The notes: generated by a model from the letters alone, not told the origin. A stretch of 64,000 nucleotides of DNA from Promethearchaeota archaeon (GCA_016839555.1 JAEOUA010000005.1:64001-128000), one strand, 5' to 3'. Positions 1,875 through 48,461 are shown, counted from the stretch's first letter. Numbers and translations are program-made.

Positions 1875-3236
1875 ATGAAATTATCAAGAATTTTGGCATA
1901 TGGAGTTATAGTCCTATTTTATTTTATACTAATGCATATCTTTTTTCCAATTGAATGGTCCTCTCCTGTAAAAGAAGCAATCGATACCTTTTTTATGAAT
2001 CCTTTGAAGTATTGGTGGTTCATATTTCCATTGATAGGTCTTATTTTTCTATTAGGACTTGATATTTTTTATGGAATCTATTTTCTTGCATCATTTGGTC
2101 GTGGTTATCGGACTAAAGAACCTTATTATCCTGATATAAGTATAATGATTCCTTCGAAAAACGAAAAAGTATTACTTAAAAAAACATTGGAATCTATATT
2201 GAATTCAAACTACCCTAAAGAACATATTCAGTTAATTCTAATTACCAGTGAATCTACCGATGGAACAACCGAATTTAGCAGAGAATTTGCCAAAAAATAT
2301 GGAAATATTATGGATATTAAGACTATATCAGAAAAACCCCTCAAACCGGGGAAACCTCCAAAATTAAACCTTGGATTAAAATTAGTGAAGAATGACATTG
2401 TTGTATTATATGATTGTGGATGCATATTACAACCTGACACTTTAAAACATTTAATCTCTCCATTTCAAAACAAGAAAAATAATGCTGTGATTGGACCAGT
2501 TTTAGTTGAAAACTGGAAAACAAATATTTTAACCAGAGGAATATTATTGGACTATTCTCTTATCTCTGGGGGTGGAATTACTTTCGAAGTTAAAAATAGA
2601 TTGGGATCATCAGCCTATTCTTATGGTCGCAATTTTGCTGTAAGAACCAAATATCTTAGAGAGTATGGGGGATTTAATGAGGATTCTATGACAGAAGATT
2701 TATACCTCTCGGTTCTTTTGAATTTAGATGGGGTGCAAATTCGTTACTCGCCAAAAGCAAAAATCTATGAATATGTACCAAGCACTTGGGAGATTTTAGT
2801 TAAGCAACGAACAAGATGGTTAGCAGGATATGTTTTTGATATGCCGGAATTAATGGCAATGAAAAAAGAAAATAGGAGTGGCCAACCAATAATTATCTCA
2901 AGGAATATGACTATGATGTTAATCGGTAATTTAGATACATGGATTCCTGTTGTAATAGCTATTTCATTAATATTTGGATTAATCGGTGAATATTATTTAT
3001 TAAGTTGGAGTTTATCCTGCTTAATTTTTCAATTTGGATATATATTTAACGCTATATGGAAGTATGCTGATAAACATTTTAGCCTGTTATTATTTTGGCC
3101 GATTAGTGCCTATATCCATCTTTATATGTTTCTAAGACAATTTAGACTGCCTGAAAATATGAGCTGGGAACTAACTCCAATGCTGTTTGAAAAAGAAGAG
3201 CAAGAAATAATAGCCATATCTAAAATAATCGAATAA
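1875..3236 (+). CDS. Membrane-bound GT2 glycosyltransferase (cellulose-synthase-like motifs)
   Basis: ISIMIPSKNE, STDGT, TED and QRTRW (QxxRW) motifs; TM helices at both ends; DxD position reads YDCG. Confidence 0.9.
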   Translation: MKLSRILAYGVIVLFYFILMHIFFPIEWSSPVKEAIDTFFMNPLKYWWFIFPLIGLIFLLGLDIFYGIYFLASFGRGYRTKEPYYPDISIMIPSKNEKVLLKKTLESILNSNYPKEHIQLILITSESTDGTTEFSREFAKKYGNIMDIKTISEKPLKPGKPPKLNLGLKLVKNDIVVLYDCGCILQPDTLKHLISPFQNKKNNAVIGPVLVENWKTNILTRGILLDYSLISGGGITFEVKNRLGSSAYSYGRNFAVRTKYLREYGGFNEDSMTEDLYLSVLLNLDGVQIRYSPKAKIYEYVPSTWEILVKQRTRWLAGYVFDMPELMAMKKENRSGQPIIISRNMTMMLIGNLDTWIPVVIAISLIFGLIGEYYLLSWSLSCLIFQFGYIFNAIWKYADKHFSLLLFWPISAYIHLYMFLRQFRLPENMSWELTPMLFEKEEQEIIAISKIIE

Positions 3237-3249
3237 ATAATGATCAAAA

Positions 3250-4017
3250 ATGGGGAACAAAGTCATAATATTAGCTGGGGGAAAGGGGAAAAGATTAGGT
3301 GAATTGACAGATCAGATCCCCAAACCATTGATGAAAATCGGGGAATATCCCATTATTTGGCATATAATGAAAATCTATGCCTCCTATGGGTTTAAAGAAT
3401 TCATATTATGCCTTGGATATAAAGCAGATCTTATTAAATCCTATTTTTTTCATTATAATTCACGTAAAAATGATTTTACCATAGATTTAGCAAATTCCAA
3501 TATTGAATTTCATAATAATGTAAGTGAGGATTGGAAAGTTAGCCTAATTGACACGGGACTGAATACTCCTAAAGGAGGGAGAGTTAAGAAAATTGAACCA
3601 TATTTAGATTCTGATATCAATATGTTAACTTATGCTGATGGATTGGCGGATATCAATATTAAAGAGTTATTGGAATTTCATAAGCGTCATGGAAAAACGA
3701 TTACAACTACTGGTGTGCCTCATTCATCAAATTTCGGGGAGATCGTAGAGAAAGAAGGGAAAGTTCTCTCTTTTAAAGAAAAACCGAATATTACCCTAAT
3801 TAATGGCGGGTTTATGGTTTTTAATAGCAATTTTTTACAAAGATTGGATAATAATTCTAAACTTGAAGAAATAATTCTTAGGGAATTATCGAAAGAGGGA
3901 GAAGTAATGGTATATAAACATCAAGGAAATTGGGCTTGTATGGATACATTTAAAGATTATTTATATCTCAATTCATTATGGGAAAACAATAATGCATTTT
4001 GGAAAAACTGGCAATAA
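3250..4017 (+). CDS. rfbF: Glucose-1-phosphate cytidylyltransferase (RfbF-like sugar-phosphate nucleotidyltransferase)
   Basis: ILAGGKGKRL, PKP, PIIWHIMKIY, CLGYK, DTGLNT-GGR, TYADGLAD, INGGFMV, WACMDT, LW...W C-terminus. Confidence 0.85.
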   Translation: MGNKVIILAGGKGKRLGELTDQIPKPLMKIGEYPIIWHIMKIYASYGFKEFILCLGYKADLIKSYFFHYNSRKNDFTIDLANSNIEFHNNVSEDWKVSLIDTGLNTPKGGRVKKIEPYLDSDINMLTYADGLADINIKELLEFHKRHGKTITTTGVPHSSNFGEIVEKEGKVLSFKEKPNITLINGGFMVFNSNFLQRLDNNSKLEEIILRELSKEGEVMVYKHQGNWACMDTFKDYLYLNSLWENNNAFWKNWQ

Positions 4018-4119
4018 TTAACTAAATACTATTTTTCATTTTTTTCTTAAAATTATTTTTAAATTATATAATTCAGTTTTCTATAACTGATTAGATCATC
4101 TAAATTTTCTAACTAAAAA

Positions 4120-4211
4120 GGGAGATAGAAGTGTCCTCTTATAGGGATAATCAAAAAAGTAATCCGACTATAAGAGGACTCCCCGTGTTTTTGTCGCCTC
4201 TTCATTCTCCC
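4120..4211 (-). ncRNA. Candidate ~92-nt structured small RNA of unknown class
   Basis: ~43% GC island in very AT-rich spacer; 12-bp perfect stem (4133-4144 / 4168-4179); ends pair (GGGAGA/TCTCCC); minus-strand TTTAAATA box ~25 nt upstream and U5 tract directly downstream. Confidence 0.5.
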
Positions 4212-4411
4212 AGATATATATATTGAATTATGTTATTTAAAAATAATTAACTTGCCATGCTTAACAGACTTAACTAAACTTATTTAAACTAAACTTTTAG
4301 AAAATAAACAAAATATTTAGATATTAAAAATAATACTGCTAATGAGAATATTTAGATTTTACAAAATAACTGTATATACCATATAAAATATAATTTAATG
4401 GGTGAATAAAT

Positions 4412-4576
4412 TTGGTTGGATGTCATGATCTAAGAAAAGGAGATGTTATTTATTGTCCAGATTGCGGAATAGAACTTACAATAACCGCTGTATGTGAAGA
4501 ATGCGAAGAAAACTCATGTGGGTGCGAACATGAATGTGTATTTGAATGCTGTGGAACGCCCCTCGTGCAAAAATAA
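4412..4576 (+). CDS. 54-aa Cys-rich desulforedoxin-like metal-binding miniprotein (not in ORF track)
   Basis: TTG start 6 nt after GGTGA SD; MVGCHDLRKGDVIYCPDCGIELTITAVCEECEENSCGCEHECVFECCGTPLVQK; CxxC...CCG frame; followed by T-rich tract. Confidence 0.8.
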   Translation: MVGCHDLRKGDVIYCPDCGIELTITAVCEECEENSCGCEHECVFECCGTPLVQK

Positions 4577-4681
4577 AAACTGAATCTTTTTTCTTATTAT
4601 TTCTATTTTTTATTATTATTTTTTAATCTCTTTTTTATTTTGAAAAATTTTATTAATTTCTTAAAATAAAAAAGCAATTTT

Positions 4682-5194
4682 TTAAGAACTAGGAGAACAA
4701 CTGTAGAGGCTGAATGGTCGTATTTTAATAAATTTTTCAAAATCTTTTAGTACAAAGAAATAGTTGTGTAATACCTGATCTAAGATAATTTTCATTGTTT
4801 TTATTCCCTCTTTAATACCTTCTAAATCTTTCGATAAAAGGACCATATATTCAGAATTAGTTTTTAAGTAGTAGCATCCCTTTTCAATTGAGAGATTTTC
4901 ATGTTGTGCAATAATAGTATTTGTTTCCTTTATTTTGTTCGGATCTGTAAAAATAATCATTAAAAAAGAGTTTGTATATGTTTTTTTTAGATAGGTATCT
5001 CTTATACCGGGAGCTTGTAGAGTTATTTTCATATAATCTTGGAATAGATATTGAAGTTGATTTAACTCTCTTCTAAATCTTAGTTTATTATGATAAAACT
5101 TGAATTCCTCATTTAAATTTAAAGTTTCTCCTTCCAAATAAGTTAGCTCTTTTGGAGGCGTTTCAAATGTAAATTCTTTAAGATAATCGGACAT
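4682..5194 (-). CDS. Stand-alone GH20 N-terminal (domain 2, zincin-like) domain protein
   Basis: TPPKELTYLEGETLNL and EKGCYYLKTNSEYMVLLSKDLEGIKEGIKTMKIIL resemble the hexosaminidase domain-2 consensus (EGYxL...GlxxGxxTLxQL); no catalytic barrel. Confidence 0.55.
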   Translation of the reverse strand: MSDYLKEFTFETPPKELTYLEGETLNLNEEFKFYHNKLRFRRELNQLQYLFQDYMKITLQAPGIRDTYLKKTYTNSFLMIIFTDPNKIKETNTIIAQHENLSIEKGCYYLKTNSEYMVLLSKDLEGIKEGIKTMKIILDQVLHNYFFVLKDFEKFIKIRPFSLYSCSPSS

Positions 5195-5311
5195 TTTTAA
5201 TCATCATTGAAAATATTTTATAATTTTTAACTGTTTTAATTAGTTTATTATTGTATTTTAAAAAAAGATTTAACTTATAATTTACAAAAAAATTTTTGTG
5301 AAAAAATAAAA

Positions 5312-6412
5312 CTAAATAGGGGGCAAATCTTTTATTTTTGCTAAACCTTCTCGACTCGCTTCAAGAACTCCAAACTCTGTTATTATTCCAGTTACGAATT
5401 CAGCGGGAGTCACATCAAAAGCAATATTTTTCGCATTTGCGTTTACTTGCGCGATTCTTATTTTTGTTCTTTCCTCTTTTTCATAATTCATTCCCGACAT
5501 ACATGTTACTTCTTCTTCGTCTCGTTCTTCTATTATGACATCCATCCCATTGTCCATCTCATAATCAATGGTCATTCTGGGTGCTACCACATAAAAGGGA
5601 ACATTATAATGATTACATGCTAATGCGATACCAAGAGTGCCAATCTTATTGCATACGTCTCCATTTGCAGCAATTCGATCGCTGCCTACAAACACGATAT
5701 CAACTTTTCCTCGCTGAATAAAATGACTATTTGCATTATCAACAATAATAGCATAATCAATACCTTCTTGTGCCATTTCCCACGCAGTTAATCTGGCCCC
5801 TTGGCATCGTGGACGAGTTTCATCAACAAAGACAAAAATTTTTTTTCCATGCTGCTGAGCCCAACGAATGGGACCGGTGGCGGTTCCCCACAATCCACTA
5901 AATGCAAGAGCTCCCGCATTACAATGAGTTAAAATTGACCATCCCTCCTTAATTAGTTTCCCGCCATATTCTGCCATTTTTGTGGCAGCTCTTTGATCTT
6001 CTTCAAAAATCTCATCTGCCTCGTCGACTACTGCCTTAATAATATTATCTGTGCCTCCTTCTTTCGCCGCTTCTTTTCCGCGATTTAAAGTGCGCTCGGT
6101 TGCATGCATTAAATTTACTGCGGTAGGTCTGGCAGTATCTAAATATTCTTTTGCTTCTTCTAATTTTTGGATTAGTTTTTTAGGCGACAGATTGGCATTT
6201 TGTAATGCTATTTGAGCCATTCCGAAACCTGCAGTCACTCCAATGGCACCTGCGCCTCGTGTATACATATCCTTGATTGAGTGCCACAACTCCTCAGTAT
6301 TATTTAAATCAACGATTTTTAATTCAAAAGGAAGGGGCCTTTGATCAATCATCTTTACAATAGAACCCTCGCGCCAAACTGTCATTACTTCAGAACCATT
6401 TTTTAACTTCAT
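5312..6412 (-). CDS. mtnA: S-methyl-5-thioribose-1-phosphate isomerase (eIF2B-alpha-like family)
   Basis: IDQRPLP, RGAGAIG, RPTAVNL, LTHCNAGALA, DETRPRCQGARLTAWE, GSDRIAANGDVCNKIGT, AFDVTP. Confidence 0.92.
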   Translation of the reverse strand: MKLKNGSEVMTVWREGSIVKMIDQRPLPFELKIVDLNNTEELWHSIKDMYTRGAGAIGVTAGFGMAQIALQNANLSPKKLIQKLEEAKEYLDTARPTAVNLMHATERTLNRGKEAAKEGGTDNIIKAVVDEADEIFEEDQRAATKMAEYGGKLIKEGWSILTHCNAGALAFSGLWGTATGPIRWAQQHGKKIFVFVDETRPRCQGARLTAWEMAQEGIDYAIIVDNANSHFIQRGKVDIVFVGSDRIAANGDVCNKIGTLGIALACNHYNVPFYVVAPRMTIDYEMDNGMDVIIEERDEEEVTCMSGMNYEKEERTKIRIAQVNANAKNIAFDVTPAEFVTGIITEFGVLEASREGLAKIKDLPPI

Positions 6413-6472
6413 TTCTTATCCTATTTATTTTAATTTCTTATAATTAATAGTTATAGAATTATAATAAAGATA

Positions 6473-6958
6473 TTAAATTTTTTTCCCTGAGTTATTAAAC
6501 CATTTTAATAGATTTTTACTTTTTTCTGGAAATAATTCTTTTAATACTTTTATTGCGGCATTTTTTACTTCTGAACTTTTATCAGAAATTACACATTCTT
6601 CAAGAATGGTAAAAATTGTATCATTTTTCAAATTTAATAGCTTTAACGCATGAATACAATTCACCTTATTTTCTATATTTTCATTATTTTCAAGAAAAAA
6701 TTTTAATAAGTCAATAGTTTTTTCTGCTGTGAATTCTTTTATCGTGAAATAATGATAAATATCAGCAACCGTTAAATCCTTCTCCATAAATTCGATGGTA
6801 TCTTCATATAAAAGATCCTCAAGGGAATCAGAAACTAACACAAAAGAGCAGGAATGATTTTCTGGTAATCGATGTTCGCTACAAAAGCTTTTCCCACAAT
6901 ATTTACAATGAAAACTTAAGGTTTCGATTCTCTTCTCGCAGAAGGTGCATTTTTTCAT
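6473..6958 (-). CDS. AN1-type zinc finger plus HEAT-like repeat protein
   Basis: CTFC...CKYCGKSFCSEHRLPENHSC; C-terminal helical repeat (SDKSSEVKNAAIKVL). Confidence 0.8.
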   Translation of the reverse strand: MKKCTFCEKRIETLSFHCKYCGKSFCSEHRLPENHSCSFVLVSDSLEDLLYEDTIEFMEKDLTVADIYHYFTIKEFTAEKTIDLLKFFLENNENIENKVNCIHALKLLNLKNDTIFTILEECVISDKSSEVKNAAIKVLKELFPEKSKNLLKWFNNSGKKI

Positions 6959-7109
6959 TTTTTATTTTCGATTGTAAAAATTAAAAATATTTTTTATTAC
7001 TTTATATATTAAACTATAAAATTAGTATAATAAATTTTAAGAGGAATTTCTAATAAAGAAAGATATTTCTAAGGAGTAATTCTTCTTTAATAAAGATATA
7101 GGAAAAAAC

Positions 7110-8000
7110 ATGCAAAATGACCACAAAAAGAAACCTCGCAAATATGAAATCATCTCTTGTTCAAGAAGGACTGATATCCCCGCATTTCTAATGGATTGGG
7201 TAATAGAAAAAATAAATCAAGGGTTTGTTGATGTTGCCAATCCTTTTAATAAAAAGCAAATTACGAGAGTTTCATTGAGACCAGGGCATGTAAAATGTTG
7301 GTGCTGGTGGAGTAAGGATTTTTCTGATTGGATAAACTATTATAAATCAAATAAATCCTTATTTCAGGAATATGAAGGACATTATTTTCAATTTACTATT
7401 AATTCTCCCTCCGAATTAGAAAATCAAATAAAATCATCTTTAGATGAAAGATTAGACCAATTAAACTGGTTGATTGAAGAATTTGGCACACTAGCTGTAA
7501 ATTATCGATTCGATCCCATTATTCTATATAAAAAAAAGGGCTCTAATCAGATAAAAAGTAATTTGAACAAATTTGAATATATAATTAACCATGTATCAAA
7601 ATTCGGATTAAAAGAACTAATTTTCTCCTTTGCTACAATTTATCCTAAAGTTAAAAAGCGTATGGAAGCAAGGGGCTATATTCCCATTGATCCTCCAATA
7701 AAGAAAAAAAAAGAAATTTTACTAAAATTATTAAAAATTTGTAAGCTGAATCATTTGGAAATGAAGGCTTGTTGTCAACCAGATTTGCTCAAACTCCAAC
7801 TTCCAGGAGTTTCACAAGCCCATTGTATAGATGCTTATAAGATCCAAAAAATTGTGGGCATATTTATATCTAAAGAAAAAGATACTGGTCAGAGGGATGC
7901 ATGTGGCTGTCATAAATCAAAGGATATAGGAGGGTACCATGGAATTTTTCAATGTAAACATAATTGTAGCTATTGCTATGCAAATCCGAGAAAAAGCTAA
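7110..8000 (+). CDS. DUF1848 family protein (radical-SAM-like Cys motif at C-terminus)
   Basis: IISCSRRTDIPAF, YRFDPI, KDTGQRDACGCHKSKDIG, CKHNCSYCYAN. Confidence 0.85.
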   Translation: MQNDHKKKPRKYEIISCSRRTDIPAFLMDWVIEKINQGFVDVANPFNKKQITRVSLRPGHVKCWCWWSKDFSDWINYYKSNKSLFQEYEGHYFQFTINSPSELENQIKSSLDERLDQLNWLIEEFGTLAVNYRFDPIILYKKKGSNQIKSNLNKFEYIINHVSKFGLKELIFSFATIYPKVKKRMEARGYIPIDPPIKKKKEILLKLLKICKLNHLEMKACCQPDLLKLQLPGVSQAHCIDAYKIQKIVGIFISKEKDTGQRDACGCHKSKDIGGYHGIFQCKHNCSYCYANPRKS

Positions 8001-8033
8001 GATCTATAAAAAAACCCTCTATAGATTGAATAG

Positions 8034-9161
8034 TTAAAATGGAAAATGATAATTATCTAAATGCAATTCTTTTTTGATTTGCTTAATATCTTTTTGAATA
8101 CTTTCATTAATGGGAATTCCCATATTTTTTCGTTTTACTTGGGTAATATATTCTTTTTCGCCAGCTGTATATATCCGTTTTTTACCTGGTAACTTTTTAG
8201 ATGATCTTAAAGTCCTCATTATTATACCTGAAATAGTTTTAAATCTCTCAAGTGGGATAAAGTTCTTTATATTTATTGCTAAGAAGAAATGTCCCACTAT
8301 AAGTTTTTTCTTCCCCTTCTCAATTATTCCTTCCGTATCTTTTAAAAACACTCCATCTTGTAATGCGGAAGAGAGAATCTCTACAAAAGTAGAATATCCA
8401 TAACCCTTATATCCAGAAGGATTCGCGCAATTACCCCCAATTGGTAATAATGCTGCTTTTTTTCGCTTTAAATCGTTTAGTATTTTTTCTGGGTTTGTTT
8501 CTGATTTTCCTTGTTCATTTAATACGACTCCCTTTGGAATACGCTTATTTTTTCTTTTATACAGTTCAATTTTTCCCTTCTGAATTATTGATGTGGCACA
8601 ATCAAGCAAAAACGGGAAACTTTCATCTGTGGGCACACCAGCTGTTAATGGATTTGTTCCCAACATTGGTTCAGCACCATTAGTAGGAGGAACTGCTGGA
8701 GTCGCATTCGTTGTGGTTATACCAATACAACCTTCTTGTATAGCCATTTGAGAATAATAACCAGCAATGCCAAAATGAGTAGAGTTTCTTACAGCAACGG
8801 CTCCCATTCCATATTTTTTTGCCTTTTGAATGGCTAATTTCATCGCCTTATATGCGATTACATGCCCCAATCCACAATTTCCATCAATAACTGCCGTAGT
8901 TGGTGAATCCTTAATAAGATCAATTTTGGTTCGTGGATTATATATCCCTTTTTTGATTCTTTCATAATACATTTTCAATCGTTGTATTCCATGAGTCTCT
9001 ATTCCTTTTAAATCTGCTGTAATTAACACATCAGCAATAATCTGCGCATCTTCTTCTGGTACATTAAGCTTTATAAAGACATCCTCTAAAAATCCTCTTA
9101 ATTGCTGCTCACTTATATAAACTTCCTTCTCTTCAGTTTCTATTATTTGCATAAAAATCAT
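8034..9161 (-). CDS. Ldh2/Mdh2-family (ComC/AllD-like) NAD(P)-dependent 2-hydroxyacid oxidoreductase, paralogue 1
   Basis: ADLKGIETHG, VRNSTHFGIAGYY, LGTNP, DCATS, YKGYG, IYTAGE. Confidence 0.9.
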   Translation of the reverse strand: MIFMQIIETEEKEVYISEQQLRGFLEDVFIKLNVPEEDAQIIADVLITADLKGIETHGIQRLKMYYERIKKGIYNPRTKIDLIKDSPTTAVIDGNCGLGHVIAYKAMKLAIQKAKKYGMGAVAVRNSTHFGIAGYYSQMAIQEGCIGITTTNATPAVPPTNGAEPMLGTNPLTAGVPTDESFPFLLDCATSIIQKGKIELYKRKNKRIPKGVVLNEQGKSETNPEKILNDLKRKKAALLPIGGNCANPSGYKGYGYSTFVEILSSALQDGVFLKDTEGIIEKGKKKLIVGHFFLAINIKNFIPLERFKTISGIIMRTLRSSKKLPGKKRIYTAGEKEYITQVKRKNMGIPINESIQKDIKQIKKELHLDNYHFPF

Positions 9162-9351
9162 TTATTTCATTATATTCGCCAACTATACTTTCTTTATAAT
9201 TTTATTAATTATTTAATAAAAATGATACTTTTAAGAAAATTTTCAGTAGTATTTTTTTGATTTTAATATTAAAATCAATTATTTTGTAAATTTCTAAAAA
9301 TCAAAATATTTCTTTTTTAGAAACAAAGAAGTAAACAATATCATATATAAA

Positions 9352-10923
9352 GTGAAAAATATTTTTATATTAATAATGGTTAAAGAAAAGGTTTTTTTAC
9401 CCGGAGCTAGTGGTTCGATGGGTTATGAAGCCTTCAAACAACTCTGGGAAAAAAGAGATAAGTATGATATTGTCTTACTTCAGCGCCCCTCCAAGAAAAA
9501 CAAAAAATTATTTAAGCCTTATGAAAAACAGTGTGGAATTAAATCAATTCCTGGAAGAGGTATTGTAGAAAAGAATGGATTTAAAATAGTTTGGGGAGAT
9601 GCTACTAATTATGAAGATATTGAAAATGCATGTGAGGGGATTGATTGGTGTTTATGTCCGATGGCATTCATATCCCCCGCAGCAGATCGCAATCCTAAAA
9701 TGGCAGAAGCAGTTAATACAACCGCAATTAAGTATATAATAAAAGCCATTGAAGCCCAACCAGGGGGAGCTAACCATATAAAATTTATTTATATAGGCAC
9801 TGTAGCAGAAACAGGAGATAGATTACCACCGATCCATCATGGAAGAATTGGTGACCCTTTGAAACCGAGTATATTTGATTTTTACGCTGTTACCAAGATT
9901 AAAGGGGAGAGGACAGTTTTGGAATCAAATTTAAGATATTGGGCATCCATACGTCAGACTTTTATTATGATTCCTGATGTATTATCACTCCAAGATCCTA
10001 TTATGTTTCATCAGCCTATTAATTCTTTTATGGAAAATAATACGTGGAGGGATGCTGGAAGAGGGTTAATAAATTGCTTAGACATTCCAGAAGATTCCAA
10101 TTTTTGGAGAAGGTGCTATAATATGGCTGGAGGCCCATCTTGTCGGATTACTTTCTATGATTATTTAAACAGAGTAATGGAAATAAATGGGCTGGGTAGT
10201 ATTACAGAAGTTGCAGAGAGAAAGTGGTTTGCTCTACGCAATTTTCATATGCAATATTATGAGGATAGCTATAAATTAAATGAATACATACATAATTGGG
10301 GGGATTCAATGGAAGATTTTTTCGAAATCATGAAGGAAAACCGACCATTCTCTTTAAAACTCATTTCATGGCTATGTAAAAAATCGAAACGCTTTCAAAA
10401 GATAGCAAAAAAGGCAACCTATAAACAACTGAAGGAATTAGCTATGGATAAAACGGGCACATTATATTGGTATAAAAAAAATTTAGATATGAGAATATCG
10501 GCATTTTATGGATCATATAAAAAATTTGAGTCAATTCCTGAGTGGGGGATTGATATGCCAACCATGCATCCAGAACCATCTTGGCATAAATTAAATCATG
10601 GATATGATGAAGATAAAGTAAGTCTAACTATTCAAGATTTAAAAAAGGCAGCAAAATTTAGAGGAGGAGAGTTAATAACAGAAGAATGGAATGGTAATAT
10701 GTATGAGAAAGTGAAATGGAAATGCGCATTTGGGCATGAATTTGAGTTTAAACCATATACAGTTCTTAAAGCAGGACATTGGTGTCCAGATTGCTTACCG
10801 CCACCATGGAATTACGATCAAGAAGCCAAAAAAAATCCTTTTTTCGCACAAGTATGGTATCCCAATCATAATAAGGATGAAGATAATTTCTATCCGGAAA
10901 ATTGCTATGAAGATATCCTCTAA
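9352..10923 (+). CDS. Extended SDR (NAD-dependent epimerase/3beta-HSD-like) with C-terminal Zn-ribbon; probable start ATG 9376
   Basis: PGASGSMG Rossmann motif, YAVTK (YxxxK), C-terminal WKCAFGH...HWCPDC. Confidence 0.8.
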   Translation: MKNIFILIMVKEKVFLPGASGSMGYEAFKQLWEKRDKYDIVLLQRPSKKNKKLFKPYEKQCGIKSIPGRGIVEKNGFKIVWGDATNYEDIENACEGIDWCLCPMAFISPAADRNPKMAEAVNTTAIKYIIKAIEAQPGGANHIKFIYIGTVAETGDRLPPIHHGRIGDPLKPSIFDFYAVTKIKGERTVLESNLRYWASIRQTFIMIPDVLSLQDPIMFHQPINSFMENNTWRDAGRGLINCLDIPEDSNFWRRCYNMAGGPSCRITFYDYLNRVMEINGLGSITEVAERKWFALRNFHMQYYEDSYKLNEYIHNWGDSMEDFFEIMKENRPFSLKLISWLCKKSKRFQKIAKKATYKQLKELAMDKTGTLYWYKKNLDMRISAFYGSYKKFESIPEWGIDMPTMHPEPSWHKLNHGYDEDKVSLTIQDLKKAAKFRGGELITEEWNGNMYEKVKWKCAFGHEFEFKPYTVLKAGHWCPDCLPPPWNYDQEAKKNPFFAQVWYPNHNKDEDNFYPENCYEDIL

Positions 10924-11099
10924 AAATTTTTTCTTTGATTAAAGCTATTTCAAAATTTCTCATTTAGTCAAATTTTTTAATATTTAAAAGAGAAATAAGC
11001 AATTAAATAGAATATATAACTAAGTAAAAAGTAAAGTATTTTAGGATAAAAAATCGAATTATAACTTAATTATTTAAATTAAAAATTGAGATTTTAAAA

Positions 11100-12671
11100 G
11101 TGACTGAATTAGTAGAAGAACAAAAAATTAAGAATAAATATGATGCCATAGTCATTGGTTCTGGGAATGGAGGTTTAGCAGCCACCGCAAAATTAGCAAA
11201 AGAAGGAGTTAAAGTCTTACTTTTGGAGCAACATAATTTACCAGGTGGATTTGCCACTAGTTTTGTACGGGGGCGATTTGAATTTGAAGCTTCCTTACAT
11301 GAACTCGCGGATTATGGACCAAAATCCAATAGAGGAGGCATAAGAAAATTATTCGAGGATCAATTTAATTTGGATGCTGAATTTGTTTGTGTTCCAGAAG
11401 CCTACAAATTAATCTTGACCGACCCAGAAGAACATTTGGAAATAGCTCTACCGTTTGGTTTAGATGAGTATATTGAAACTATTGAAAAAGAAGTTCCAGG
11501 AAGTAGAGAATCAGTTAGAAATTTTTTTAATTTAGCAAAAGAAATACGAGCTGCATTTGGATACATTGCTTCTACTCAAGGTAAGCCCGATCAAGGTGTT
11601 TTAATGAAAGAATATACAAATTTCTTAAAAACAGCAGCATATTCTGTAAAAGAAGTCCAAGATGCGTTAGGGATTCCTGAAAAAGCAAGAAAAATCTTAA
11701 ATGCCTATTGGTGCTATTTAGGGCTCCCAGAAAACAGAATTAATTTTACATTATTTGCTTCAATGGTTCTTGTCTATATTGATAAGGGAGGCTGGATTCC
11801 TGTAAATCGCTCTCATGGCTTTACTACAGCACTAGACGCAAGAATTAGGGAATTTGGGGGTGATATTAATTATAATACAAAAGTAGAAAAAATTTTAGTA
11901 AAGGAGAGACAAGTAGTTGGAGTAGAAACCTCATATGGTGATAGAATTGAAACATCTCATATTGTCTGTAATGCTTCTCCTACATTAGCATATAATCAAT
12001 TGATATACCCTAAATCAGAGGTACCTGAATTTGCATTTAAAGAAGTAAACGCAAGAATCCATGGTTTAAGTGCCTTCTGTGTATATTTAGGGTTAGATGC
12101 AACAGTTGAGGAATTAGGATTAAAAGAATACAGTTATTTCATCATGGACGATATGGATACTGAAGCTGTATATGATTCTTGGAAAAAATTAGAAGCGCCA
12201 CGGGCGCAAGCTACGGTGGTTATAAATAATGCAATCCCTGACTGTTCGCCACCAGGCACCACTATGATGTATATCACCACTTTATTTAAACCAGACGCTT
12301 GGAAGGATGTTAAACCTGAAGACTATGTAAAAACAAAAAATCAAATTGCTGAAAAATTGATTGATCATTTTGAAGAAGCTACTGGAGCGCCAATTAAGGA
12401 ACATATTGAAGAAATAGAAGTTGTCACTCCCGAAACTTATGCCAGATATACGGGTACTTATAAAGGAATCATATACGGATATGAACCAGAATCTTGGGAT
12501 TCTTTAGTGCCGAGATTAATGAGTATGGGCAAGGATCAATATATAAAAGGATTGCGGTTTTGCGGAGGATTTGGCAGAAGGGTTCACGGTTACTCCAGCA
12601 GTTTAAATGATGGTTTTACGGTAGCATTATTGACTTTGCAAGATATTAAAAAGGGAGGTGCGGCGGAATAA
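11100..12671 (+). CDS. Phytoene desaturase/retinol-saturase-like FAD-dependent oxidoreductase, copy 1
   Basis: DAIVIGSGNGG, LLEQHNLPGG, FEFEASLH, TPETYARYTG..GIIYG, GLRFCG. Confidence 0.88.
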   Translation: MTELVEEQKIKNKYDAIVIGSGNGGLAATAKLAKEGVKVLLLEQHNLPGGFATSFVRGRFEFEASLHELADYGPKSNRGGIRKLFEDQFNLDAEFVCVPEAYKLILTDPEEHLEIALPFGLDEYIETIEKEVPGSRESVRNFFNLAKEIRAAFGYIASTQGKPDQGVLMKEYTNFLKTAAYSVKEVQDALGIPEKARKILNAYWCYLGLPENRINFTLFASMVLVYIDKGGWIPVNRSHGFTTALDARIREFGGDINYNTKVEKILVKERQVVGVETSYGDRIETSHIVCNASPTLAYNQLIYPKSEVPEFAFKEVNARIHGLSAFCVYLGLDATVEELGLKEYSYFIMDDMDTEAVYDSWKKLEAPRAQATVVINNAIPDCSPPGTTMMYITTLFKPDAWKDVKPEDYVKTKNQIAEKLIDHFEEATGAPIKEHIEEIEVVTPETYARYTGTYKGIIYGYEPESWDSLVPRLMSMGKDQYIKGLRFCGGFGRRVHGYSSSLNDGFTVALLTLQDIKKGGAAE

Positions 12672-13918
12672 TGAATGACAAAGATTATGAAAAGATTGAT
12701 ATCACTATTAAAAGCAATACAAAGGATATTTTTGCGTTTACTAAATTGGTACCAGACAGAATAAAGCGAATTGAAAAGGCATCTAATGAACCTTTAACAG
12801 AGGATCCGATTAATGATCTTGCACAAAAACTCCATCCAATAAGGCAACATTTAAAAATTGATCAAATTATTGATAATACCAAATCTACAAAAACATTTAG
12901 GTTAATTTCAGATTTTGAGAGAGGAACAGAACAATTAGCCTATTTCCGTGCTGGACAATATTTAAGTTTAAAAGTAGAAATCAATGATGAATGGATTACC
13001 AGACCATATTCCATCTCTTCAAGTCCAAAGGAGTCGTTAGAGGGATTTTATGATATTACAATGAAAAAAGAAGAAGATGACGGCTTTTTAACCCCCTATA
13101 TATGGGAAAATTGGAAAGTTGGCACTAAAGTGATAAGCTCTGGTCCAGAAGGCTTTATGTATTATGAACCTTTAAGAGATAAAAAGCACATTTTAGGGTT
13201 GGCAGGGGGCTCAGGTATCACACCATTTAGATCCATAGCAAAAGCTATTGCTGAAGGTGAAATTGATGCCAAACTAACGCTTATGTATGGATGTAGCGAT
13301 GAAGATGATATAATCTTTTTCGATGAATTAAAACAATTAGAAAAAGAAAATCTAGATAAAATTAAAGTAGTAATAGTTCTAAGTTGTGAAGAAGTAACTT
13401 TAAAGGGCTGTGAAACGGGTTTTCTCACAGCGGAATTGATTGATAAATATGCTGATGTCTCTAACAGTTCACTCTTCATCTGCGGCCCCCAAATTATGTA
13501 TGAGTTCGTTGAAAAAGAATTGGAGAGATTTAATTTACCTCCCAAACAAATAAGGCGAGAAGCATTTGGAGAAATTAAAAATATTTCGGCATTTAGCGGA
13601 TTTCCTAAAGATAAAATTGATAAAAATTTCAAAATTACCGTTCATATTGGTGGAATGATAAAAGAAGTACCGGCAAAATCGACCGAATCCGTATTAGTGG
13701 CTCTAGAAAGGGCCAAATTAGCCCCACCCTCTAAATGCCGATCTGGTGAATGTGGATTCTGTCGATCCTTATTACTTGATGGTGATGCATATATATCTCC
13801 TATTTCTGATTGGAGAAGGGATGCAGATAAAAAATTTAATTATATTCATACTTGTAGCTCATATCCAATTAGCGATCTTGAATTAATAATTCCTAGAAAA
13901 CAACACAGAGATTTTTAA
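12671..13918 (+). CDS. FNR-like FAD/NAD(P)H reductase with C-terminal [2Fe-2S] ferredoxin, copy 1
   Basis: FRAGQY, RPYSISS, AGGSGITP, ICGP, EAF, CRSGECGFC...C; TAATG overlap with the upstream gene. Confidence 0.9.
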   Translation: MNDKDYEKIDITIKSNTKDIFAFTKLVPDRIKRIEKASNEPLTEDPINDLAQKLHPIRQHLKIDQIIDNTKSTKTFRLISDFERGTEQLAYFRAGQYLSLKVEINDEWITRPYSISSSPKESLEGFYDITMKKEEDDGFLTPYIWENWKVGTKVISSGPEGFMYYEPLRDKKHILGLAGGSGITPFRSIAKAIAEGEIDAKLTLMYGCSDEDDIIFFDELKQLEKENLDKIKVVIVLSCEEVTLKGCETGFLTAELIDKYADVSNSSLFICGPQIMYEFVEKELERFNLPPKQIRREAFGEIKNISAFSGFPKDKIDKNFKITVHIGGMIKEVPAKSTESVLVALERAKLAPPSKCRSGECGFCRSLLLDGDAYISPISDWRRDADKKFNYIHTCSSYPISDLELIIPRKQHRDF

Positions 13919-25447: not shown

Positions 25448-26902
25448 TTGATGTTAGTGGATAAGAATAAAAGTGATATTGATCAAATTGAATCTCTTTT
25501 TTATCCAAAAGATATCGCTTTTATTGGAGCAACGGAAAGCAGCACCTTTGGATCCATGCTATATTTAAAGGATTTTAAAGATTCTGAATGGTCAGACAAT
25601 TTTTATCCCGTAAATCCTAAACATGATGAGATTTTAGGCTGGAAGTCTTATCCTTCAGTATTAGAAATTCCTAATCACGTGGATACCGCATATATTTCCG
25701 TGAAAACTAAAATAGTTCCAAAGGTATTACAAGAATGTGTAGATAAGGGAATAAAATGGGTAATTATTTTTTCCTCTGGTTTTTCAGAAACAGGCGAAAC
25801 AGAAAGGAAAAAAATAGAACAGCAATTATATGAAATAATTAAAAACTCTGATACAAGAGTTATCGGTCCTAATTGTCTTGGACCCTATAATGGAATCACT
25901 GGCATGAGTTTTTCATTTGCGGCACGACCAAAAAAAGGCACTACCTCTTTTATGTCGCAATCTGGAGGACATTTAAGTCAATTATTGGATATCGGAGTAA
26001 AAAGAGATTTAAGATTTCGATATGGTGTTTCTTTTGGTAATCAAGTGGATTTGAATTGTCTCGATTTTTTACGTTTTTTTAGAGAAGATTTGGGAACTAA
26101 AATTATTGCAGCGTATTTAGAATCATTTGGTTCTTCTACAGGGCATGAATTTTTTATGGAACTTAAGGAAACGACGAAAAAAAAGCCAGTCTTACTATGG
26201 AAAGGAGGATATACACAAGATGGTTCTCGTGCGGCATTTTCACATACTGGTGCCTTAGCTTCTGATTTTAAATTGTGGCAAACCATGGCAAAGCAAACAG
26301 GAGCAACTTTAATTAGAGATAATGAAGAATTTTGGAATACTATAAAGACCTTTGAGCTTTTATATCCTACCAGAATGCCTCAAGGCAGAAATGTGGGAAT
26401 AATTACGCCCGGAGGTGGATCATCTGTAAATATGACAGACTTATTTGCATCTCACAATTTAAAGGTTCCAGAATTAACTCTTGAATCTCAAGAAAAGCTC
26501 AGTAAAATCTTACCAAAAGAAAATGTAAATATTAAAAATCCAGTAGATCTTGGGGCTTCGGGATTCAACATTAACATATTTCTTGAATGTATTGATTATC
26601 TAACCCAAGATAATAAAATAGATATTATTATGATTCCATTATGGAAGCATCACGTTTTCCGCTATGTATTTAAACGGATGATTCAATTACTAAAGAAGAG
26701 GGCAAAACCCTTCGCATTTTGTCTGCCCAGCTTAGCAGATTCGGTAGAATTAGCAAAACGATTTAATATCGCTAAAAGGATCATACATAAAGAGAGAACA
26801 CTATATTATTTTTCCTTAAGAGATGCCGCAAATAGTGTTTCTAAACTTTGCGATTATCTGGATTATTTAAATGCTCATAATATAAAAATTCAAGAGAGTT
26901 AA
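25448..26902 (+). CDS. acdA: ADP-forming acyl/acetyl-CoA synthetase alpha subunit
   Basis: IAFIGAT CoA-binding domain, SGFSETG, IGPNCLG, SQSGG, SFGNQ, SHTGALA (phospho-His), NPVD. Confidence 0.85.
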   Translation: MMLVDKNKSDIDQIESLFYPKDIAFIGATESSTFGSMLYLKDFKDSEWSDNFYPVNPKHDEILGWKSYPSVLEIPNHVDTAYISVKTKIVPKVLQECVDKGIKWVIIFSSGFSETGETERKKIEQQLYEIIKNSDTRVIGPNCLGPYNGITGMSFSFAARPKKGTTSFMSQSGGHLSQLLDIGVKRDLRFRYGVSFGNQVDLNCLDFLRFFREDLGTKIIAAYLESFGSSTGHEFFMELKETTKKKPVLLWKGGYTQDGSRAAFSHTGALASDFKLWQTMAKQTGATLIRDNEEFWNTIKTFELLYPTRMPQGRNVGIITPGGGSSVNMTDLFASHNLKVPELTLESQEKLSKILPKENVNIKNPVDLGASGFNINIFLECIDYLTQDNKIDIIMIPLWKHHVFRYVFKRMIQLLKKRAKPFAFCLPSLADSVELAKRFNIAKRIIHKERTLYYFSLRDAANSVSKLCDYLDYLNAHNIKIQES

Positions 26903-27025
26903 ATAATAAACATTTCACTAATAAATTAATAATCCTGTAAAACTTCTGTTTTCTATTTTAATTCTCGTTTGATATAGCTATATTAACATAAAATAAAAAA
27001 AATAAAAAAGAAGATATTTGAATTT

Positions 27026-28504
27026 TTACTCCTCAGATTCTTTTTCTTTTGCTAATCGATCTATTTTACTATCAAGTTTTGATTCAACTTTTGGCATTTC
27101 TGGTAAATGTTTTAAGGTTTCTTTATAATTAATTCCAGACTTTTCCAAGCGTTTTCTTTGAATTAGATATAATAGTGCCCCGACAGCTGTATAGGGGAAA
27201 ACAATTAATGCAACCACAAGTCCCGCATCAGGATCTGTAAATACCAAAAACACGAATATAAATGAAGTAATTGCTCCCATTATACCCATTATTTTTAATG
27301 CTCTGCGAGAAGGTTTAAATCCTGATTTTTCATGCCATTCTGGAAATTTTTTAGGAAGTGTTATTGCGGCTAGTGACACTGGAATTTGCAAAATAAGAAC
27401 TACTACACCTACTACTGCGCTTAATAATACTGCTGAAGTATATACTCCGTAAAATGGAGACAAGATAGGGATAAATGTAAAAAGAAATATTATACCAACT
27501 ATCAGAAGAAGTGTTAGGGCGGGAATTGGGGTTTTTTGTTTTTTATGAATTTTACCTAGTTTTTTTGGAAATAATTGTTCTCTTGAAATCATATAAATAT
27601 CCCTGCTGAAAGCCATAAAACTCGGATGAATAGTAGATCCTATTGCAGTGATAATAAGGACAGCCATGATTCCAACTACAACTGGAGGCAATAATCCTTG
27701 TAGTGCAATTAATTCTGTGACAGTACCGACGGGCTCATCATACGGTTGAACGGCTGCAACCATAAATGCTTGAAGCGTGTAAATAGCGACCAAGAAGATT
27801 ATACTGATAAGCAAAGCTCTCGGAATATTTTTCCCGGGATTTTTTATTTCACCTGCAACTTCTAAGATCAAAGTGAATCCAACATAGGAGAAATAAAATG
27901 TTAAAGCAGTAAATAAGACGGGGGGAAATCCTTCTGGGAAAAGTGGCATGAAATTCCCCCATTTGATAGCGGGAATTGCTGCGACAATGAATATTATCAT
28001 TACAAATATATCTCCAAATATCGTTAAAATCAATTCAATTGCGCCAGAAAGTTGAATTTTAATCCAATTTAAAAAATAGAACACAATTAAAACGATCACC
28101 CCAATAATTACCGAAAACCATACCATCGCATCAGCAGGTATTCCAATCACTTGACCAATAAAAAATCCGAAAGACGCCCCTAAATAAGCTAATGTAGATC
28201 CTACAGCTAATATAATTAGCCAAACAGTCATAAATCCACCAAATCCTCCCATCAATCGACTTACTATAACGTAGGTGCCTCCTGCCACGGGAAAGGCTGA
28301 TCCTAAGTAAGCAGCGATATAAGCTATAAAAATTCCAGGTATAACAGCAATAAGATATGAAATGAAAATTGCTGGACCAGTTTCTGAGAGTTTTTCTGCA
28401 GGAGCAATCCAGATAGAAGCTCCAATTACCATACCTATAATTATAAAGATTGCCATAGGTAAATTTAAGCCGCGTTCTAATTTTTCTTCAGCCATTTTAT
28501 TCAC
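27026..28504 (-). CDS. APC-family amino acid permease
   Basis: GMVIGASIW, PVAGGTY, FSYVGF..AGEIKNPGKNIPRA; 12 TM. Confidence 0.9.
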   Translation of the reverse strand: MNKMAEEKLERGLNLPMAIFIIIGMVIGASIWIAPAEKLSETGPAIFISYLIAVIPGIFIAYIAAYLGSAFPVAGGTYVIVSRLMGGFGGFMTVWLIILAVGSTLAYLGASFGFFIGQVIGIPADAMVWFSVIIGVIVLIVFYFLNWIKIQLSGAIELILTIFGDIFVMIIFIVAAIPAIKWGNFMPLFPEGFPPVLFTALTFYFSYVGFTLILEVAGEIKNPGKNIPRALLISIIFLVAIYTLQAFMVAAVQPYDEPVGTVTELIALQGLLPPVVVGIMAVLIITAIGSTIHPSFMAFSRDIYMISREQLFPKKLGKIHKKQKTPIPALTLLLIVGIIFLFTFIPILSPFYGVYTSAVLLSAVVGVVVLILQIPVSLAAITLPKKFPEWHEKSGFKPSRRALKIMGIMGAITSFIFVFLVFTDPDAGLVVALIVFPYTAVGALLYLIQRKRLEKSGINYKETLKHLPEMPKVESKLDSKIDRLAKEKESEE

Positions 28505-28808
28505 ATCAATAATTTTTTAATTTTTTAATAAAATCTAAATTAATTTAGAAATATTGTAATTAATTTGTTATGTTTTTATTTATATTTTTAGCTTTATTTA
28601 TTTTCTTTTAAGAAAATTAGATTTATATAATTCCTTTCAAATTGAAATTAAAACTATAATATCTTTAAGGTCTATAAAATTAAAAAGATTTAAATAAACG
28701 TGAATCATTAATTCTCAATAATTAGTTATCATAGAAGGATTTTATATAATTTTAAATTTTAAAATCTTTTTAAGCAATTTTTAAAAAATATAAAGCAAAT
28801 TCAAATTT

Positions 28809-30452: not shown

Positions 30453-30490
30453 AATAAGTTGAATAATTATATAAAAAAATAAAATGAGGA

Positions 30491-46404: not shown

Positions 46405-46406
46405 CT

Positions 46407-47828: not shown

Positions 47829-48012
47829 TTTTTATCACAGTATATTTTTAATTATATTTTTATTAAATATTTAAAATTTAAAAATTTATAAATTAGATAT
47901 TTAAGATTAAAATAATCAAAGATTCTAATGCTTTAAAGAATTATTTATCTGGAGAAATAAGGAAGGGAATAAAGTTTAAGAATTTATAACATATGATTAA
48001 AATTTATTATAA

Positions 48013-48213
48013 ATCGGAATAGGTTTCAGAAGTTTCCGAACAGAATTGGGTTTAAGTCCCTGCGTCCGGAATAATTTGGCTCTATTGGGTTTTATCAATT
48101 CCAAGAATATAGAAAAAGATTATACGAGTTTAAGAGTGAGAGCAGTATTTAGACCCATGGATCAACGTGAAGGTACCTTAAAGGATATTATACACTGGGA
48201 AATAATATCCTAA
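48013..48213 (+). pseudogene. C-terminal remnant of a second DUF35/OB-fold gene
   Basis: Open frame ...LALLGFINSKNIEKDYTSLRVRAVFRPMDQREGTLKDIIHWEIIS* resembles DUF35 C-termini; Zn-ribbon half absent. Confidence 0.5.
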
Positions 48214-48461
48214 ATAATAATTTAAACTAATTTTTTATTTTTTTCTATAATTTTTGTATGGATTTCTATTAGTAAAACCATTCGATTAATCTAAAAAAGA
48301 ATATATTTGTCTATTTTATGGTGGATTAATGATTTTGCATGAAAAACCTTTCTCTTTTTATTTAATTTCAACTTTTTTTGAAAAATACTGCAACCTTTAA
48401 AAATAAGTATAACATAGTTATTAATTAAAACAATAAATTGAATTTATAAAAGTGATAATTT

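Follow-up and report, generated by a model that had tools for sequence, protein, structure and literature searches.

The window analysed here is a 64,000-nt stretch from a Promethearchaeota archaeon (Asgard; GCA_016839555.1 JAEOUA010000005.1:64001-128000). As the initial annotation had described, it carries three co-oriented genes on the plus strand: an SDR-like gene encoding P0003 (9352-10923, an ORF call whose product ends in a C-terminal zinc-finger-like region), a gene for a flavoprotein of 523 aa (P0001, 11100-12671; Pfam, NCBIfam, AF2 and alignment), the presumed catalytic subunit, and a gene for a reductase of 415 aa (P0002, 12671-13918; Pfam, NCBIfam, alignment and complex model), the presumed electron-donor subunit. 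The TAATG overlap reported at 12671 is seen on reading the junction (12660-12675, GGAGGTGCGGCGGAATAATG), where one base is common to the TAA stop and the ATG start; together with a Shine-Dalgarno-like GGAGGTG upstream of the P0002 ATG, it forms a putative translational-coupling junction at 12657-12673. The SDR-like gene is separated from the pair by an AT-rich spacer of about 176 bp (10924-11099), with a T-run behind the stop codon of the SDR-like gene and, 25-90 nt ahead of the GTG at which P0001 begins, TATA-like AT boxes. The spacer likely comprises a terminator for the SDR-like gene and a promoter belonging to the pair. The second copy implied by the annotation's "copy 1" lies in the same window and on the same strand: a catalytic subunit (P0004, 58603-60162, 33% identity to copy 1) and a reductase (P0005, 60156-61352, 35% identity), whose genes overlap by 7 nt, accompanied by an SCP2 lipid-carrier protein (61431-61832) and an Fe-ADH (61909-63108), both as annotated in the window. 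Copy 1 is surrounded by Ldh_2, cation-efflux and MFS genes, a context that carries no information on its substrate, and acyl-CoA genes are abundant across the window.

P0001 belongs to the PF01593 superfamily: it scores 52.6 bits against the Amino_oxidase model (cut-off 19.8), also matches NAD_binding_8, and shows the GxGxxG motif and acidic residue of the dinucleotide-binding region as well as the two-domain CrtI-like fold. In an alignment of 45 sequences, the glycine motif (G20-x-G22-x-G24-G25, residues 20-25) and E43 are conserved, and FVRGRFEF at residues 55-62 is invariant. The AF2 model (pLDDT 91.3) finds its best PDB match in 4rep (TM 0.78/0.83, Foldseek E 6.6e-31), followed by 3ka7 and 4dgk. 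Neither copy reaches the cut-off of a curated NCBIfam family, i.e., 238.1 bits for crtI_fam (TIGR02734; P0001 95.0, P0004 137.5) and 586.9 for CrtISO (TIGR02730; P0001 119.7, P0004 135.4), while the genome's own CrtI (474.1 bits) and CrtD (335.0 bits), which serve as an internal control, both exceed the crtI_fam cut-off. The best curated family is TIGR02730 for P0001 and crtI_fam for P0004, with TIGR02730 close behind. RetSat is placed in the CrtISO branch. P0001 is therefore described as an FAD flavoprotein of the CrtI/amine-oxidase fold in a probable CrtISO/RetSat-like branch, with a resemblance to RetSat presumed by way of CrtISO.

The description of P0002 as a reductase with FAD/NAD domains and a C-terminal [2Fe-2S] domain holds: FAD_binding_6, NAD_binding_1 and C-terminal Fer2 all score above their Pfam cut-offs. 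From the N-terminus onwards, a conserved, family-specific extension (about residues 1-60) is followed by FAD (FNR-type) and NAD(P)H domains, and the protein ends in a plant-type [2Fe-2S] domain. Among 40 homologues, the cluster ligands C356, C361, C364 and C395 and the FNR motifs R111-P-Y-S, G179-G-S-G-I-T-P and C271-G-P are invariant or nearly so, which gives the set of features of PDR-type FNR-[2Fe-2S] reductases (the domains, RxYS, GGxGxxP, CGP and C-x4-C-x2-C-x(about 30)-C). Neither of two equivalog models is reached (PaaE, TIGR02160, 135.7 bits against a cut-off of 420.8; Hcr, NF007964, 119.4 against 383). An oxygenase or Hcp had been said to be lacking from the window, and this extends to the whole genome (92% complete), in which no Rieske match and no Hcp/Prismane match was found.

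The coupling of the two proteins was followed in 80 species-level loci from other species, drawn from Asgard archaea, Bacillota, Spirochaetota, Syntrophaceae, Chloroflexota, Thermotogota and others. Of 86 flavoprotein genes, 77 lie within 250 bp of a reductase gene, 2 are fused to one and 7 are cut by contig ends; among the 79 that can be assessed, none is without a reductase. Fusions occur in both orders, reductase-flavoprotein (L054, L063, P0126) and flavoprotein-reductase (P0216, P0252, P0254, P0261, P0262, P0264, P0267, P0273). As a rule, a locus contains a single flavoprotein gene per reductase, and a few contain two or three (L051, L062, L064, L084). Across 151 Asgard genomes, the reductase is present in 29 and the flavoprotein in 30, in the same genomes, and 44 of 49 reductase genes adjoin a flavoprotein gene. 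Only two reductases of this kind are encoded in the host genome, and next to each stands one of the two closest flavoprotein paralogues; copy-1-type flavoproteins always pair with copy-1-type reductases, as copy-2-type do with copy-2-type. A lone reductase was observed in one closed Asgard genome, 130 kb away from the flavoprotein gene.

The predicted P0001-P0002 complex reaches an ipSAE of 0.93, against 0.00 for the best control; on calibration, 58 of 80 solved complexes and 2 of 110 mismatched pairs came up to the mark applied. At least 91% of contacts are shared between separate runs, and the partner pLDDT is at least 87. The modelled interface on the reductase comprises residues 5-55 and 353-391, and the N-terminal extension and the cluster-cysteine loop contact the conserved FVRGRF and RSH segments of the flavoprotein. 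Since no similar complex is known to us, the prediction is unlikely to reproduce a structure already seen by the predictor. Conserved adjacency, fusion in both orders, co-occurrence, the predicted complex and a genome lacking oxygenase and Hcp matches strongly support the FNR-[2Fe-2S] protein as a dedicated partner of the CrtI-like flavoprotein, as the initial annotation had proposed; a co-occurrence of the reductase with an oxygenase or Hcp was also looked for and did not emerge. No paper characterising the pair was found, nor were biochemical data for any of its members found in the literature; on sequence comparison, it is an uncharacterised two-gene module common to an Asgard archaeon and many anaerobic bacteria.

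The same neighbourhoods speak against the upstream gene as a third member. That P0003 is an extended SDR can be maintained only tentatively: GASGSMG and YxxxK (YAVTK) motifs are visible in its translation and some homologues have precomputed PF01073 or PF01370 matches, but its own Pfam matches lie below cut-off (NAD_binding_10, 20.7 vs 27.2; 3Beta_HSD, 19.1 vs 22). Given that its homologues span 98% of the query, translation probably begins 8 codons further on, at the ATG at 9376. The SDR had been expected to act on the same molecule as the pair, and a single three-enzyme pathway would accord with three adjacent genes on one strand. However, no SDR homologue stands beside the pair in any of the 80 other loci, a search of five near relatives with the pair failed to find the gene in four, among them a 98% complete genome of the same genus, homologues in three other genomes lie in unrelated contexts with no pair nearby, and the T-run and spacer intervene. 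A three-enzyme pathway is therefore given next to no credence; P0003 was rejected as a member of the system, and its gene is regarded as an unrelated neighbour.

Copy 2 (58603-61352) is read as an ancient duplicate that has co-diversified with its own reductase. Among 12 loci of the host's taxonomic family, ECH is linked to copy-2 pairs in 9, Fe-ADH in 7 and SCP2 in 6; SCP2, Fe-ADH and the pair stay linked in relatives while gene orders are shuffled. Bacterial neighbours include FadR-type regulators (5 loci), DegV/FakB with FakA (3 spirochaete loci), acyl-CoA synthetases, acyl-CoA dehydrogenases, enoyl-CoA hydratases and an FabK-like NMO protein, yet only about one in five of the immediate bacterial neighbours is lipid-related and the contexts are heterogeneous. 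The sole isoprenoid-lipid neighbour is PcrB, which adjoins the pair in one Syntrophomonadaceae locus (L047). Carotenoid genes are lacking within the window, as had been noted, but a full cluster (CrtB, CrtI, cyclase, CrtD and CruF-like, with no reductase) exists on another contig of the genome (L103), and the pair was never seen beside such a cluster. PcrB and the host cluster leave room for an isoprenoid substrate.

Altogether, we give about an even chance to a model in which the two proteins are subunits of one O2-independent, NAD(P)H-driven flavoenzyme complex that saturates C=C bonds of a hydrophobic, lipid-like substrate. NAD(P)H would reduce the FAD of the FNR module, single electrons would travel through the [2Fe-2S] cluster at the reductase C-terminus and on to the catalytic FAD in the CrtI-fold subunit, and the reduced flavin would hydrogenate the double bond in a chemistry analogous to that of retinol saturase, the substrate most probably being a fatty-acyl or other lipid-like carboxylate or CoA ester. 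Conservation, fusion, co-occurrence and the predicted interface show the coupling itself; which way the electrons flow, whether the chemistry is that of a saturase and what class of substrate is used are inferred. Saturation is the favoured direction because the relatives of the reductase architecture met in family scans (BenC, PDR, PaaE, Hcr and MmoC) all, to our knowledge where characterised, pass electrons from NAD(P)H to a partner, and because established redox potentials let electrons run downhill from NAD(P)H (about -320 mV) to a C=C/C-C couple (near 0 mV), the reverse being strongly uphill. An acyl or lipid substrate is favoured from the beta-oxidation, Fak/DegV, ECH and SCP2 neighbours. 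Against a saturase, it is difficult chemistry for a flavin to pass hydride to an isolated alkene that is not activated, and the substrate of RetSat is a conjugated polyene; furthermore, the nearest characterised CrtI-like system with a ferredoxin and ferredoxin reductase, CtmABEF, catalyses an oxidation.

An unlikely yet serious alternative is a redox-neutral enzyme, similar to CrtISO or Has, that isomerises (cis/trans or positionally) or hydrates a C=C bond and for which the reductase only generates or maintains reduced flavin. CrtISO requires reduced FAD with no net redox change, and TIGR02730 is the best family for copy 1 (with copy 2 only marginally nearer crtI_fam); still, to keep a stoichiometric NAD(P)H reductase, tightly docked to the enzyme and in many cases fused to it, would be a heavy investment for occasional activation, the hosts are strict anaerobes in which reduced flavin is not lost to O2, and we know of no isomerase or hydratase of the CrtI family with a dedicated reductase. 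The precedent of Has, a phytoene-desaturase-family enzyme that hydrates archaeol double bonds (preprint 10.1101/2025.10.20.683597), and the enoyl-CoA hydratase/isomerase genes accompanying copy 2 weigh on its side.

The same two-component reductive mechanism might instead act on an isoprenoid, i.e., a carotenoid, polyprenol, quinone side chain or archaeal lipid precursor, a reading to which we assign a lower probability again. The CrtI fold and the family's known substrates, the carotenoids made by the host, the PcrB locus and the many lipids bound by SCP2 are all consistent with it, but the Asgard enzymes are 45-57% identical to their counterparts in Clostridia, syntrophs and spirochaetes, which points to a substrate found in both domains; genes for acyl-CoA and fatty-acid metabolism, rather than for isoprenoids, recur as neighbours, and the pair never adjoins a carotenoid cluster. 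Improbable, too, is a Ctm-like oxidative enzyme that would dehydrogenate or, with water, hydroxylate an allylic position, or desaturate a C-C bond, while the [2Fe-2S]/FNR protein carries the electrons off. Although CtmAB and the delta-24 steroid desaturase, both COG1233-type and O2-independent, provide precedents, established potentials make the reduction of NAD(P)+ by a C-C/C=C or allylic couple strongly endergonic, and both precedents differ from the pair in flavin attachment and subunit make-up, as described below.

Returning to the reductive acyl or lipid saturase, a bolder and clearly less probable extension is that the pair constitutes the missing O2-independent hydrogenase for unactivated lipid double bonds, a self-contained, NAD(P)H-driven fatty-acid/lipid saturase that Loki-type Asgard archaea would have acquired from bacteria and duplicated for bacterial-type acyl lipids. 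If true, the pair would account for how gut Clostridia and syntrophic fatty-acid oxidisers saturate unsaturated long-chain fatty acids.

Several known systems share parts of this architecture. Like P0002, the PDR-type reductases (phthalate dioxygenase reductase, BenC, PaaE, Hcr and MmoC) combine FNR flavin and NAD(P)H domains with a plant-type [2Fe-2S] domain, with cofactor motifs intact, and serve as dedicated NAD(P)H-to-partner electron donors; however, their partner is a Rieske/di-iron oxygenase or Hcp, whereas that of P0002 is a flavoprotein, and P0002 has the extra conserved extension of about 60 residues, which is predicted to clamp the partner. P0001 shares its overall fold and N-terminal dinucleotide-binding motif with CrtI/CrtD structures (PDB 4dgk, 4rep) at 14-16% identity. 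CrtI/CrtD desaturases pass electrons to quinones or O2, and the host's true CrtI and CrtD lie in a carotenoid cluster without a reductase, while the flavoproteins of the pair fall short of crtI_fam and have a reductase adjacent. RetSat and CrtISO are likewise FAD-dependent enzymes of the CrtI fold in which reduced flavin acts on C=C, with net saturation in the case of RetSat, for whose vertebrate form the defining reaction is an NAD(P)H-independent saturation at C13-C14 of retinol, but the TIGR02730 scores of the pair are far below the cut-off, we know of no dedicated FNR-[2Fe-2S] partner of either enzyme, and the hosts of the pair are strict anaerobes, most of them without carotenoids or retinoids.

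Also comparable are COG1233 flavoenzymes that, as is proposed for the pair, work independently of O2. In Castellaniella defragrans, the limonene dehydrogenase CtmAB clusters with the NADH:ferredoxin oxidoreductase CtmF and with a 2Fe-2S ferredoxin, CtmE, which the organism needs in order to grow on limonene (PMC4109377). Sterolibacterium denitrificans has a related enzyme, the delta-24 steroid desaturase, and both carry the covalent-flavin motif G-F-[LR]-x-[NS]-[TL]-H-A (PMC11061730). The reactions of these enzymes are oxidative (hydroxylation, desaturation). They are alpha/beta heteromers with flavin bound covalently to the conserved histidine, whereas the pair mostly has a single flavoprotein gene per reductase and the corresponding segment reads G-F-A-T-S-F-V-R, with V56, nearly invariant in 45 sequences, in place of the histidine. 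Finally, the ferredoxin and reductase of the Ctm system are separate proteins of another lineage, while the pair unites both functions in one FNR-Fer2 polypeptide.

Three co-oriented open reading frames occupy exactly the positions that the initial annotation had claimed: an SDR-like protein (P0003, 9352-10923), a CrtI-like flavoprotein of 523 aa (P0001, 11100-12671) with the Pfam domains Amino_oxidase and NAD_binding_8, and a reductase of 415 aa (P0002, 12671-13918) with FAD_binding_6, NAD_binding_1 and, at its C-terminus, Fer2; each of these domain matches exceeds its cut-off. The proposed TAATG overlap between P0001 and P0002 is also present, the junction reading GGAGGTG-N10-TAATG, with one base common to the stop and start codons. 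A second copy of the flavoprotein-reductase pair (58603-60162 and 60156-61352; 33% and 35% identity to copy 1, respectively) is followed on its 3′ side by an SCP2 gene and then an Fe-ADH gene. The window comes from a Loki-type Asgard archaeon, has a low GC content (~31%) and lies on contig C3 of a 3.74 Mb assembly that is 92% complete, and homologues of its proteins are labelled Promethearchaeota or Lokiarchaeota. An acyl-CoA metabolism island is spread over 25448-31270, 45805-50165, 53200-55141 and 63183-63905. The acyl-CoA genes of the window comprise three enoyl-CoA hydratases as well as two AMP-forming and one ADP-forming acyl-CoA synthetases/ligases, and a thiolase-like protein with a small partner ORF upstream and an Abhydrolase_3 esterase are also encoded.

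The flavoprotein and the reductase belong together. Conservation of the pair was assessed at 80 loci, on contigs chosen as one genome per species and covering both Asgard lineages and anaerobic members of the Bacillota (including Christensenellaceae, Oscillospiraceae, Syntrophomonadaceae and the cultured Natronincola peptidivorans), Spirochaetota, Syntrophaceae/Smithellaceae, Chloroflexota and Thermotogota. A reductase gene lies within 250 bp of 77 of the 86 flavoprotein genes at these loci, two more are fused to it, and the remaining seven are truncated by contig ends, so that none of the 86 demonstrably lacks a reductase; the pairing that the initial annotation described is conserved in both groups. 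Single-chain fusions are known in both domain orders, FNR-Fer2-flavoprotein in L054 (997 aa), L063 (916 aa) and P0126, and flavoprotein-FNR-Fer2 in eight more cluster representatives. In 151 sampled Asgard genomes, 29 encode the reductase and 30 the flavoprotein, these being the same genomes, and carriers cluster in the taxonomic family of the window (21/25) and one other family. Of 49 Asgard reductase genes, 44 stand immediately next to a flavoprotein gene, and another three or four are at contig ends; the sole exception is a lone copy-2-type reductase in a closed genome (L083, G038:C1:337000-349000). Its neighbours within 4037-8113 of this locus are two flavodoxin genes and a form-III-like gene for the RuBisCO large subunit, and the nearest flavoprotein gene, which itself carries an in-frame TAA, is 130 kb away.

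The window's genome encodes exactly two reductases of the pair type, each adjoining one of the two closest flavoprotein paralogues. Neither Hcp (Prismane) nor a Rieske protein was found in this 92% complete genome, which extends to the whole genome the initial annotation's remark that the window holds neither an oxygenase nor a hybrid-cluster protein. Copy-1-type flavoproteins occur with copy-1-type reductases only, and copy-2-type with copy-2-type only; therefore, the partners diversified together after an old duplication. At L084 (G028:C149, 1917-7757), three tandem copy-2-type flavoprotein genes precede a single reductase gene, a gene order which suggests that one reductase may serve several catalytic subunits; a similar flavoprotein-reductase-flavoprotein order is seen at L051, L062 and L064. 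One Asgard family carries four to six flavoprotein paralogues per genome, many with one or two in-frame stops (TGA, TAA or TAG; G047:C172:8594-10093, G070:C97:22070-23566, G088:C74:9033-10532 and G064:C221:58905-60401, among others), which could be pseudogenes, assembly errors or recoding.

Structure prediction, which the initial annotation had put forward as a check, points to a confident interface, as a model and not a measurement. The full-length P0001-P0002 complex reached an ipSAE of 0.93, versus 0.00 for the best of three controls; in the calibration of the method, 58 of the 80 solved complexes reached this mark, as did 2 of the 110 mismatched pairs. Contact agreement between runs was at least 91%, the partner pLDDT at least 87, and ~230 interface contacts were confident. 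In the model, an N-terminal extension specific to the reductase family (residues 5-55) would wrap around flavoprotein residues 314-318, 401-410 and 444-456, while the cluster-cysteine loop of the reductase (353-391) is predicted to contact the conserved FVRGRF (54-59) and RSH (236-247) segments of the flavoprotein. No solved complex of this type that the prediction could have reproduced is known to us.

The SDR-like gene, which had been proposed as part of the same system, does not belong to it. No P0003 homologue stands beside the pair at any of the 80 loci, and among five close relatives with the pair, four yielded no P0003, one of them a 98% complete genome of the same genus; conversely, three other genomes with P0003-family genes have no pair nearby. 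A T-run directly 3′ of the P0003 stop codon, followed by a 176-bp AT-rich spacer before the pair, suggests that the SDR gene and the pair are transcribed separately. P0003 represents a separate, remarkably conserved and uncharacterised family of ~520 aa with a zinc-finger tail, about 60-76% identical across Asgard, Bathyarchaeota, Dehalococcoidia and Mycobacterium riyadhense. On one Asgard contig (L085, 4328-8340), two tandem members of this family precede a Steroid_dh gene (PF02544, the 5-alpha-reductase/polyprenol-reductase family). Other neighbours were also set aside as partners. Conservation of the cation-efflux and Ldh_2 genes is limited to close Asgard relatives and was treated as inherited synteny. 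Next to copy-1-type pairs at six Asgard loci (including L008, 1488-4451), a divergently oriented gene encodes a 988-aa glycyl radical enzyme with an SCP2 domain and an N-terminal extension, which was considered as a conserved partner; its 73%-identical orthologue in the window's genome is on another contig (G000:C1:224492-227455), and thus is not part of this locus.

As for the identity of the two subunits, the reductase keeps the cofactor motifs RPYS, GGSGITP and CGP and the cluster ligands C356-x4-C361-x2-C364-x30-C395 in 40 homologues. Among characterised proteins, it is closest to reductases of the BenC, PDR, PaaE, Hcr and MmoC types, and it reaches none of the equivalog cut-offs among curated reductase families. 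An AlphaFold model of P0001 built from 45 homologues (mean pLDDT 91.3) best matches the CrtD-like gamma-carotenoid desaturase 4rep (TM 0.78/0.83), then 3ka7, an oxidoreductase of Methanosarcina mazei, and CrtI 4dgk. Among curated models, the carotenoid isomerase TIGR02730 scores highest for copy 1 (119.7 bits, and 135.4 for copy 2, against a cut-off of 586.9), and both flavoproteins miss the crtI_fam cut-off of 238.1 (95.0 and 137.5 bits). On these scores, the flavoprotein is no more than a distant superfamily member. Among 1.84 billion cluster representatives, 470 clusters at 50% identity match it at E values up to 1e-30. The ESM Atlas offers only the automatic names 'prolycopene isomerase' and 'phytoene desaturase family'. 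The same genome encodes, on contig C5 and without a reductase, a carotenoid cluster composed of a CrtB-like synthase, CrtI (474 bits to crtI_fam), a lycopene-cyclase-domain protein, CrtD (335 bits) and a CruF-like hydratase. Because these CrtI and CrtD enzymes, which act as an internal control, pass crtI_fam and the reductase-coupled enzymes do not, the latter form a separate subfamily and are not carotenoid desaturases. The cluster (L103, G000:C5:63000-76000; ORFs 2083-4983 and 7854-10195; CrtI/CrtID 642 bits) is interleaved with GlpA and bacterial-type mevalonate genes, namely class II HMG-CoA reductase, diphosphomevalonate decarboxylase and HMG-CoA synthase. Such a complete-looking set is unexpected in a presumed dark anaerobe.

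To our knowledge, every characterised relative of the FNR-Fer2 architecture hands NAD(P)H electrons to a partner. Going by established redox potentials, NAD(P)H can reduce a C=C/C-C couple in a downhill step, the reverse being steeply uphill. On both grounds, the favoured reading, by analogy, is that the catalytic subunit would perform a reductive, RetSat-like saturation. It is possible that the flavoprotein is instead a redox-neutral isomerase or hydratase that is reductively activated, since CrtISO and Has are precedents. An oxidative, Ctm-like role is less likely: CtmABEF is a precedent for a COG1233 enzyme that relies on a [2Fe-2S] ferredoxin together with a ferredoxin reductase (PMC4109377), but the subunit architecture of the pair differs and electron flow to NAD(P)+ would be uphill. 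Moreover, the histidine which, according to PMC11061730, carries the covalent flavin of CtmAB and delta-24 steroid desaturase is replaced in the flavoproteins described here by a near-invariant valine.

For the favoured saturase, gene context is suggestive, yet not decisive, of an acyl or lipid substrate. Bacterial pairs have FadR-type regulators as neighbours at five loci, DegV/FakB and FakA directly downstream at three spirochaete loci and, in Syntrophaceae, a complete series comprising an acyl-CoA synthetase, an enoyl-CoA hydratase, an acyl-CoA dehydrogenase and a FabK-like NMO protein. Among 12 loci of the window's taxonomic family, the genes linked to copy-2 pairs are those for enoyl-CoA hydratase (9), Fe-ADH (7) and SCP2 (6), in several arrangements. 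The acyl-CoA genes of the window point the same way. However, lipid-related genes make up only ~1/5 of the immediate bacterial neighbours, and the surroundings of copy 1 in the window are uninformative on the substrate. The sole isoprenoid-lipid neighbour seen beside the pair is a PcrB-family (GGGP/heptaprenylglyceryl-phosphate synthase) gene, directly upstream of it in an uncultured Syntrophomonadaceae bacterium (L047, 4801-5601).

The Asgard copy-1 flavoproteins group into a single supported clade (35 rows, SH-aLRT 96) of a 92-sequence maximum-likelihood tree. With the copy-2 clade taken as root, this group falls inside bacterial diversity, and one Asgard flavoprotein groups with Syntrophaceae. 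With this assumed root, the placement, the patchy Asgard distribution and the 45-57% identity between Asgard and bacterial enzymes would fit an acquisition from bacteria. Given this interdomain identity, Natronincola peptidivorans DSM 18979 and other cultured bacteria can stand in directly for the Asgard enzyme in experiments. The family is large, spanning human- and animal-gut Clostridia, syntrophic fatty-acid degraders, spirochaetes and Asgard archaea. If the enzyme is a saturase, a gene would be assigned to the anaerobic hydrogenation of lipid double bonds, the CrtI superfamily would gain a new mode of electron delivery, and, among the archaea related to eukaryotes, the pair would be a marker of lipid metabolism of the bacterial type. 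A full-text literature search found no published characterisation of the flavoprotein-reductase pair, and its biochemical interest is substantial but unproven. The pair is related to the CrtI-superfamily flavoenzymes and to the two-component systems that receive electrons from FNR-[2Fe-2S] reductases.
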